A stretch of 64,000 nt of DNA from Escherichia coli. Lineage in GTDB: Bacteria; Pseudomonadota; Gammaproteobacteria; Enterobacterales; Enterobacteriaceae. Shown here in pieces: positions 59,401 through 62,400 of this stretch; positions within the stretch are counted from its first letter, which is position 1, and each line of letters starts with the position of its first letter. A program made the position numbers. The stretch lies in the NCBI RefSeq assembly GCF_045037415.1, contig NZ_CP173438.1. One strand, 5' to 3'.

Positions 59401-62400
59401 CGCAGTGACCAGCGAAGCACGTTGTGCGGCGCTCCAGTCAAGACGTGACAACCGTTCGTCGGTTTCATCCACCGACATTTCGACAAAATCAAAACCACAG
59501 CTTTTTGCCAGCACCAGCCGCTCCGGCCAGGAGAGATCTTTCGCCAGCGCTTTTTCATAAATACCTAACGGATGATTACGCACGCTTGCCTCCCCAGATG
59601 GAGTCGATTTGCGCATGAAAATCAGCGGCCACTTGCGCCGGATTTGCTGCGCCTGCCAGCGACCGTCCGGCAATAAACGCTTTCACGCGGATCTCTTTAA
59701 ACAGCGGCAGGTCAGCAGGGGTAATCCCGCCGGTAATGGAAAGCTCAAGGCCGATATCGGAAAGCGCCTTCATGCGTGCCAGATCGGCCTCGCCCCACTG
59801 TTGCCCGCTGGCCTGCGCGTCACGACCACGATGATAAATCGCCTGTCGTACACCAATACGATGCCAGTCACGGGCATCGTCCAGCGTCCAGTTGCCGAAT
59901 AGCTCGATCTGAATTTCACCGCCGCAGTTCTGTGCCATCGCGTGGCCTTTTTCCACCGTGGCGAGCGGCGCGGCGCAGATGATGGTCATCCAGTTAGCGC
60001 CTGCGCCAAATGCCTGTTGCGCGAGCGTTTCACCCGCGTCGGCGACCTTCCAGTCGGCAACGATGATTTTGTCCGGGCACTGTTCGCGCAAGGCTTTCAC
60101 TGCGCCAAGCCCTTCGTTTAAACAGAGAATGGTGCCTGCTTCGACAATATCGACGCTGTCTTTTAACAGCGTCACGTCGCGCTGCGCGGCTTCAAGTGAT
60201 GAGTGGTCGAGGGCCAGTTGCAGAAGTGGTCGACTCATAATGTGTGCTCCTTGATGCGGGCGTGATAACCCTGAAGTGCGGCAATGAGATGTTGATAGCG
60301 TTGGTATTTTTGTTGGTAAAGCTGATGGGCGGCCATATCCGGCAGCAGGGTGCGTACCGGGTGCTGTAAGTCACGTTGGGCTTCGCTGAAATCGCGATAA
60401 ACCCTGGTACCGACGCGGGCGGCAAGTGCCGCACCAAAGCAGCCGGTTTCTTCCACCTGCGGCAGCTCGATACGCAGACCGCTGACGTCAGCCAGCATTT
60501 GCATCCAGACATCGGAGTGCGCCGGGCCGCCAGTGACGCGCAGGGTGTGCACATCAGTAAAACGTTCGCGCATCCGGTTGAGATGGGTCATATGGCTGAA
60601 CACCACCCCTTCATAGATAGCCTGTAAGAGGTGTGCACGGGTGTGAATGGCCTGCATCCCGTAGAAACCGCTGGTCATTTCGAGTCCGGCGTTGCTGCCG
60701 TACAGGAACGGCAGGAAAAAGAGAGCGCCACCGGCTTTCGGCAAACTGGCTACGGCCTGATTAATCTCAGCAAATGAGATTTCTCCCCACTGTGCGGTAA
60801 ACCATTCGAGATTGCCGGAAGAGGTGGGGCTGGCTTCGTGAACGATAAATTGACCATCGTTAACGTAGCGACCATAGACATACGGATGCGCTTCACCGTC
60901 ACGTAAACCGTGGGTTATGCCGCTGGTCACCGCCCAGGTCCCCATCACCGCATTGAGGGTGAATTCGTCTTCGAGCCCGGCGCAGAGTGCGGTGGAAACC
61001 ACATCAAACAGGCCGCCGACAACGGGGGTACCCGCTTTCAGACCAGTCAGTACGGCTGTCTGAGCGGTGATTTCCCCGCAGATTTCGGCAGATCCGACAA
61101 CAGGCGGCAGGGCGTGATTGATTTCAGCGATCCCCAGCCAGTCGGTTAGGCACGGGTCATATTCCCCGCGACTCATGTTGTAGAGATTGGACTCAGAAAT
61201 ATTGCTCTCTTCGCAACCTTTGACGCCGGTTAAACACCAGCGCAGGTAGTCGTGCGTCATCATCACGCAGCCAATTTGCGCGTAGCGTTCTGGTTCGTGC
61301 TCTTTCAGCCAGCGTAACAGCGACACCGGATGCCCGGTCCATAAGGTTTGTCGGGTCAGCGGATAGAGTTTTTCCGGGATGCCATCTTCCTGCCAGCGAC
61401 GAACGATTTCCATCGCCCGGCGATCCGAGGACAAAATGGCGTTACCGAGCGGTTTGTCGTTTTTATCAAGTAGAAATAAGCCCTTTCCCTGCGCGGAGAT
61501 GCCGATACCGACAATTTGTTCCCCGCTGACGCCAGAATGGGTAAGCAGGGAGCGAATGACAGCAGTGCAACATTGCCACAGTTCTGCCATGTCGCGCTCT
61601 GCCCAGCCTGGCTGTGGACTTAATGCGCACAGCGGCAGGCGCTGCACGCCCGCCTCCCGGCCTTCTCGGTCATACAGCCCGGCTTTCAGCCAGCTACCGC
61701 CACAATCTAACCCCAGCCAGTATTGCGTCATGGTTTATTGCACCTCATCCACGGCTTTCAGCAGATCAGCACCCTGGGGAACATCTTTAACAAACATGTC
61801 ACGGACCTGGGTACCCAGCGCATCGCTAAAGGCTTTGCGGTCGAGATCGGTGATGACTTCCACGCCCGCTTCTTTCATACCGTCGATGATTTTTTGCTGA
61901 TCTTCGGCGACCAGTTTGCGCTGATAGCTACCCGCTTCCTGCGCAGATGAGATCAGTGCCTGCTGGAACTCCGGGGTTAAGCCATCAAACTTCGCTTTGT
62001 TGATCACCACCAGAAGTGGGGAATAGGCGTGATGGGTCAGAGAAAGGTACTTCTGCACTTCGAAAAATTTTGCTGACCAGACGACGTTGATCGGGTGTTC
62101 CTGAGCGTCGATAGTGCGGGTTTCCAGCCCGGTATAGACTTCGGCAAACGGCATCGGGATCGGGTTAGCGCCAAAAACTTTAAATGCGGCGATATTCATC
62201 GGGCTGTTGTTGGTGCGGATTTTTAGTCCTTTCAGGTCGGCAGGTGTTTTAACTGGCTGGCGTGAGTTGGTGACATCGCGCCAGCCGTTTTCCCAGTAAG
62301 CCAGCACTTTCAGCCCTTTACCTTCAAGGGAGACTTTCAGGTCATCACCGACTTTGCCGTCGAGCGTTTTATGCGCGTGAGCGGTATCGCGGAACAGGAA

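Follow-up and report, generated by a model that had tools for sequence, protein, structure and literature searches.

Spacings of -4, -1 and -8 nucleotides (nt) are enriched between co-directional genes (PMC12548453), and the -8 nt start/stop overlap class (NTGNNTGA-type) has been described as joining co-directional genes of one operon, with the Shine-Dalgarno sequence (SD) of the second gene lying inside the first (Brown & Wade 2025, PMC12548453; Huber et al. 2023, PMC10666635). In Escherichia coli K-12 MG1655 such a junction connects sgbH (b3581) and sgbU (b3582) at NC_000913.3 3749232-3749239 (sgbH 3748577-3749239, sgbU 3749232-3750092), and the K-12 yiaK-S genes form a single operon repressed by YiaJ (PMC6237786). 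Paralogous genes belong to the K-12 L-ascorbate operon, in which ulaD, ulaE and ulaF encode enzymes in the same order as the sgb genes (decarboxylase, 3-epimerase, 4-epimerase). Here we compare these systems with the sgbH-sgbU junction in a 64,000-nt stretch of the E. coli contig NZ_CP173438.1 (assembly GCF_045037415.1), referred to below as the window.

In the annotation by the Prokaryotic Genome Annotation Pipeline (PGAP), taken from positions 76914-140913 of NZ_AP018784.2 (E. coli SK1144), which are 100% identical to the window, a segment of the E. coli chromosome, sgbE, sgbU, sgbH and lyxK are four consecutive minus-strand genes. Direct reading of the sequence gives an sgbH/sgbU overlap of exactly 8 nt, GTGCGTAA, at 59576-59583 on the minus strand, and the positions of the GTG and TAA codons in these co-directional neighbours assign the pair to the -8 class. 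Across the junction the minus strand runs GGGGAGG-CAAGC-GTG-CG-TAA (positions 59600-59570 read CATCTGGGGAGGCAAGC GTG CG TAA TCATCCG), and the Trp-Gly-Gly codons in the conserved C-terminus of SgbH (IWGG) supply the SD of sgbU. The K-12 junction shares the gene lengths of 663 and 861 nt, the GTG start, the TAA stop, the GGGGAGG SD and the 8-nt GTGCGTAA overlap. More widely, lyxK, sgbH, sgbU and sgbE match NC_000913.3 b3580-b3583 in length, in start and stop codons and in overlaps of -4, -8 and -7 nt, although nucleotide identity over lyxK-sgbE is only 93.4%. The 5 nt between SD and GTG are CAAGC here and TGCGC in K-12, so that SgbH ends in GGKRA here and in GGARA in K-12, and two codons before the sgbU start K-12 carries an additional GTG that looks non-functional. 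The GTG start, SD and 8-nt overlap proposed in an earlier note on this DNA thus agree with PGAP, with the curated K-12 coordinates and with the comparative evidence given below, and the comparison with curated K-12 start sites that the note asked for returns the same sgbU start. The junction observation is accurate and already known, as it is contained in both the curated K-12 and the PGAP annotation.

Both products are clear members of their families. SgbU scores 519.4 bits against TIGR00542 (cut-off 272.15; profile 1-279 of 279) and 508.9 bits against NF009689 (cut-off 200; profile 2-285 of 286), and it matches the UlaE structure 3cqh at E = 8.3e-108. SgbH scores 450.3 bits against NF009831 (cut-off 294) in an end-to-end match (protein 1-220 to profile 1-220 of 220) that takes in the C-terminus creating the overlap.

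Five independent lines of evidence, read from the sequence and its homologues, establish the GTG as the predicted translation start of sgbU. Among the 120 best SgbU homologues 88 are 286 amino acids (aa) long, and nearly all share one N-terminus, which starts six residues before the conserved GIYEK. The start position is also the same in all 15 loci compared, being GTG in 5/5 from E. coli (the window and four more) and ATG in the ten others, which come from Yersinia, Serratia, Mangrovibacter, Kluyvera, Enterobacter ludwigii, two genome assemblies and three metagenome contigs. The five E. coli loci span 90-100% identity to the window, with GTGCGTAA and the SD invariant in all of them. In six of the ten non-E. 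coli loci no ATG, GTG or TTG occurs upstream before the next in-frame stop, which leaves the homologous ATG as the sole possible start there. When the over-extended open reading frame (ORF) of 316 aa was used as the query, matches to 3cqh, TIGR00542 and NF009689 began at residues 31-32 (profile positions 1-2), and those to the two profiles at residue 32, corresponding to residue 2 when translation starts at the GTG. Fourth, the duplex of the sgbU SD with the 3' end of 16S rRNA has an energy of -11.3 kcal/mol, the strongest among all genes of the window and reached by 0.13% of random 20-mers from it; this SD is kept in K-12, with G-rich variants in other genera.

The longest ORF at sgbU runs 30 codons further upstream, with a TTG and an ATG as possible starts. 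As the fifth line of evidence, these 90 nt contain 13 differences from K-12, of which eight fall at sgbH codon position 3, equivalent to position 2 of the sgbU frame, and a hypothetical extension would differ from K-12 at 8/30 residues compared with 11/286 in SgbU proper. As the substitutions track the sgbH frame and the extension changes so much faster than the protein, the segment is simply the 3' end of sgbH, noncoding in the sgbU frame. Before residue 32 the 316-aa query matched neither UlaE nor the family profiles. At both upstream codons an SD is missing, with duplex energies of -2.1 kcal/mol (ATG 59616) and -0.1 kcal/mol (TTG 59673), and both were ruled out as the true start by SD, homology, substitutions and absence across species. 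A start at the in-frame ATG 59616-59614, 11 codons upstream and giving a 297-aa protein, would have in its favour that ATG is a commoner start codon than GTG, that this ATG is found in all five E. coli loci examined, and that nr holds a 297-aa E. coli SgbU entry (P0003, 38 member sequences). We nevertheless regard it as extremely improbable. Besides being without an SD, this ATG forms part of the sgbH His-Ala codons (CAT GCG), and it is absent from 10/10 non-E. coli loci, among which only Serratia (L005) has any upstream in-frame ATG, another one located 7 codons before the start. The 11 residues that it would add are likewise without homology to UlaE or the family profiles and differ from K-12 at three positions, in the substitution pattern of the sgbH frame.

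Across the sampled Enterobacterales sgbU keeps one start position, around which the sgbH stop varies from +2 to -8 (Table 1), and every sampled taxon forms its SD out of Trp-Gly/Arg codons in the conserved C-terminus of SgbH (...IWGG). Among the 15 loci GTG together with -8 occurs only in E. coli, and one metagenome contig (L019) combines -8 with ATG. Based on this comparison, we infer that the -8/GTG arrangement is the derived state, and the combination in L019 suggests that the sgbH stop moved first and that the change from ATG to GTG came second. In the simplest course of events the original sgbH stop would have been lost and SgbH would have read on into sgbU, as far as the TAA offered by codons 2-3 (CGT AAT); ATG would have become GTG in E. 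coli in a later step.

Perhaps the GTG start and the -8 overlap reflect slightly deleterious drift under relaxed selection, in a rarely used and repressed operon, and are no adaptation of coupling or tuning. The sgb/yia genes from sgbE to yiaO (58034-62721) are indeed 91.3-94.5% identical to K-12 at the nucleotide level with 6-16 aa changes each, whereas flanking housekeeping genes reach 95-98.7% with mostly 0-5 aa changes; YiaJ keeps the operon repressed under standard conditions (PMC6237786), about 570/5426 genomes have no match, and at least one strain, MLI104K2, carries the operon in decayed form, as pseudogenes. This explanation is nonetheless unlikely, as all four genes still show a concentration of substitutions at third codon positions, GTGCGTAA and the SD have stayed invariant over the five E. 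coli loci despite their divergence, and the operon is present in 4856/5426 genomes. Less likely still, in our view, is that the Escherichia-specific change from ATG (+2/+1/-1) to GTG/-8 was an adaptive re-tuning of SgbU synthesis relative to SgbH and not neutral drift; were it so, GTG/-8 might lower SgbU synthesis or tighten its coupling and thereby set the stoichiometry in a secondary L-ascorbate/L-xylulose pathway.

Two further observations concern the same operon. Across the 4856 genomes sgb/yia identity falls into two main classes, with 658 genomes at >=99% and 3807 at 90-95%, which suggests either two old allelic lineages or relaxed constraint. In E. coli MLI104K2 (L009, NZ_CP116925.1) lyxK, sgbH and sgbU are annotated as pseudogenes with frameshifts and internal stops, and the GTGCGTAA junction is intact.

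The geometry of the junction bears on how sgbU is translated. The strong SD, built from Trp-Gly-Gly codons towards the sgbH 3' end, would position ribosomes at the sgbU GTG, and termination of sgbH would follow 8 nt past it, at the TAA lying within sgbU codons 2-3. Ribosomes finishing sgbH would therefore stop a few nt from the sgbU start and beside a very strong SD, where some re-initiation is plausible; the same SD should also allow independent initiation. Because ribosomes terminate this close to the start, part of the translation of sgbU is probably coupled to that of sgbH, through re-initiation or because the site is held unfolded. In published tests four of five overlapping E. coli gene pairs were coupled by termination-reinitiation, usually with the assistance of an SD (PMC6728339). 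Taken as a whole, a GTG start with a strong SD, probable partial coupling and a derived -8/GTG state very likely form the best explanation of the junction.

Several points weigh against this explanation. Coupling is reported to be most efficient at -4 to +3 nt and to drop as the overlap grows beyond -4 (PMC12548453), and the sgbH/sgbU spacing of -8 lies outside that range. Folding of the 131-nt RNA around the junction gave no more structure than shuffled sequences do (z = +0.72), and there is therefore no sign of an occluded sgbU start that upstream ribosomes would have to unfold. None of sgbU, sgbH, sgbE and lyxK appears in the TRAINSPOTTER N-terminomics supplements, and a literature search turned up neither an experimentally determined SgbU N-terminus nor an initiation-site profile, which is no surprise for an operon that YiaJ/PlaR represses under standard conditions. 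Lastly, the order of events at the junction is drawn from a small, unrooted sample of loci.

Alternatively, sgbU could initiate independently, by de novo binding of 30S subunits at its SD, and the 8-nt overlap would be mere compact packing without functional coupling. The strength of the SD (the strongest in the window), the lack of inhibitory RNA structure around the start and the reported fall in coupling efficiency would all fit, as would the tested E. coli pair bioBF, which initiated de novo, and the variation in spacing across genera (+2, +1, -1, -8), where no single value appears to be required. However, all sampled genera keep the sgbH stop within 8 nt of the sgbU start, -8 is itself an enriched class, and an SD aided re-initiation in the coupled majority of tested E. 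coli pairs. Purely independent initiation seems a reasonable possibility but short of an even chance, and we retain probable partial coupling as the preferred account. A start-hiding RNA structure that would make sgbU depend on upstream ribosomes was rejected given z = +0.72 and because the small CUCC/GGAG pairing in the junction RNA of this strain is not conserved in K-12. Two apparent SgbH-SgbU fusion proteins in the database, P0005 (457 aa) and P0012 (473 aa), carry OMP-decarboxylase (SgbH) and AP_endonuc_2 (SgbU) domains. Both are single-member clusters from metagenome assemblies and would most simply be explained as frameshift errors, with a 1-nt assembly error at the overlap; programmed frameshifting there gains no support from them.

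Table 1 Positions of the sgbH-sgbU junction elements, the surrounding genes and the other overlaps in the window, with the sgbH/sgbU spacing found in each taxon
Feature	Position	Strand	Details
sgbU start codon GTG	59583-59581	-	PGAP and K-12 annotation, homologous ATGs, family profiles
sgbH stop codon TAA	59578-59576	-	inside sgbU codons 2-3 (CGT AAT)
Shine-Dalgarno GGGGAGG	59595-59589	-	5 nt upstream of the sgbU GTG
sgbU coding sequence	58723-59583	-	861 nt, 286 aa, L-ribulose-5-phosphate (L-xylulose-5-phosphate) 3-epimerase
sgbH coding sequence ('ulaD' in PGAP)	59576-60238	-	663 nt, 220 aa, 3-keto-L-gulonate-6-phosphate decarboxylase
sgbE coding sequence ('araD' in PGAP)	58034-58729	-	PGAP
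lyxK coding sequence	60235-61731	-	PGAP
30-codon upstream extension of longest sgbU ORF	59584-59673	-	TTG at 59673, ATG at 59616
lyxK/sgbH overlap, 4 nt (ATGA)	60235-60238	-	annotation
sgbU/sgbE overlap, 7 nt (ATGTTAG)	58723-58729	-	absent from the earlier note
waaG/rfaP overlap, 8 nt	4900-4907	+	second -8 junction of the window, same in K-12; absent from the earlier note
rfaQ/waaG overlap, 4 nt	3783-3786	+	absent from the earlier note
waaB/waaO overlap, 1 nt	7792	+	annotation
secB/gpsA overlap, 1 nt	25965	+	annotation
lldR/lldD overlap, 4 nt	29646-29649	-	annotation
lldP/lldR overlap, 1 nt	30422	-	annotation
mtlD/mtlR overlap, 1 nt	39559	-	absent from the earlier note
selA/selB overlap, 4 nt	47143-47146	+	annotation
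sgbH/sgbU spacing +2			Enterobacter ludwigii, GCA_014764465, two metagenome contigs
sgbH/sgbU spacing +1			Serratia, Yersinia
sgbH/sgbU spacing -1			Kluyvera, Mangrovibacter, L014
sgbH/sgbU spacing -8			E. coli, metagenome contig L019

Short overlaps are common in the window, where 11 of the 42 co-directional neighbour pairs overlap, by 1, 4, 7 or 8 nt. With NTG starts and TAA, TAG or TGA stops, genes cannot overlap by 2 or 5 nt, and multiples of 3 are excluded, so that these lengths are the four shortest allowed; the pattern is not due to chance. The reading of such overlaps in the earlier note as signs of translational coupling is reasonable in the light of published work but only partly supported. 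Six other overlaps listed in that note (lldP/lldR -1, lldR/lldD -4, selA/selB -4, secB/gpsA -1, waaB/waaO -1 and lyxK/sgbH -4) were right and are identical in K-12, and four more can be added to them (rfaQ/waaG -4, waaG/rfaP -8, mtlD/mtlR -1 and sgbU/sgbE -7). The sgbU/sgbE overlap is much more conserved than the sgbH/sgbU spacing, as ATGTTAG is identical in E. coli (K-12 included), Enterobacter, Kluyvera, Mangrovibacter and two other assemblies, with ATGCTAA in Serratia. The convergent genes waaH (+) and yibQ (-) also overlap, by 14 nt at their 3' ends (20567-20580), as they do in K-12.

The expectation that automated callers over-extend ORFs holds for a mechanical longest-ORF list and for a few 297-aa database entries (P0003), but not for PGAP, which makes none of these errors. 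In the mechanical list the over-extensions named earlier are real and range from 8 to 173 codons (kbl 173, gpmM 48, envC 8, mtlD 21, sgbU 30 and the GH127-like gene 16), and coaD (56 codons), aldB (30), secB (20), waaB (10) and others are affected as well. PGAP in this strain and curated K-12 agree in length and start codon for 35 orthologous genes. The sole start disagreement is at rfaQ/waaQ (2728-3786, +), where PGAP uses a GTG 12 codons upstream of the K-12 ATG position, a GTG that K-12 likewise has, in an open frame. The TIGR02201 profile starts at residue 7 of the GTG-start product, and the N-terminal M-R/K-[VI]-L-[IV]-[VI] strand of RfaC and RfaF aligns to its residues 7-11, which favours the longer form; the GTG start therefore looks right and the K-12 start too short.

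Gene content in the window differs from K-12 in several places. Adjoining sgbE lies a block (53581-58002) of a GH127 gene, a transporter of the MFS family and an AraC-type regulator, where K-12 has ysaC, ysaD and yiaT-yiaW. PGAP annotates the GH127 gene (-) as a frameshifted pseudogene at 53581-55550, with a length that is not a multiple of 3, while the mechanical ORF of 673 aa (53577-55598) ends 4 nt further on at 53577, so that the frameshift must be near the 3' end. At least 80% of this gene is found in 2314/5426 E. coli genomes, and K-12-like genomes carry a 190-bp remnant at 87.9% identity. Other differences from K-12 are a 1447-aa YadA-like adhesin and a DUF3251 gene between lldP and yibL (32495-37562, -), a Fic-family gene between yiaY and aldB (50459-51754, +), and the absence of htrL between rfaD and kbl (16863-17075) and of the rhsA-yibU block between yibF and yibH (44979-45048). 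In the core-lipopolysaccharide cluster waaG and rfaP (3783-5697, +) form a sharply divergent segment, with only 80.0% and 81.5% nucleotide identity to K-12 and 35 and 26 aa changes, near waaA, rfaC and rfaF, which are >98% identical.

Beyond annotation hygiene, where the curated K-12 and PGAP start of sgbU is right and longest-ORF tracks and a few 297-aa entries are over-extended, the junction has little consequence. It is a textbook illustration of short overlaps arising by a stop-codon shift and no new phenomenon; the small added value lies in the comparative picture of a fixed sgbU start, a shifting sgbH stop and an SD drawn from SgbH Trp-Gly codons. Compared with the described -8 class, the pair is likewise co-directional, in one operon and with its SD inside the upstream gene, and differs in that the sgbH stop is TAA where the example motif has TGA. 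Compared with the ula operon, UlaE aligns with SgbU from residue 2 onward, but ulaD and ulaE are separated by 9 nt, unlike the overlapping sgbH and sgbU, and ulaE/ulaF overlap by 1 nt. In Kluyvera, Mangrovibacter, Enterobacter, Serratia and Yersinia sgbU starts at the same position behind a G-rich SD from the SgbH Trp-Gly/Arg codons, but the start codon is ATG and the sgbH stop lies at +2, +1 or -1, where E. coli has GTG and -8; SgbH has 217-218 aa in most of these other Enterobacterales and 221 aa in the Yersinia locus, compared with 220 aa in E. coli.

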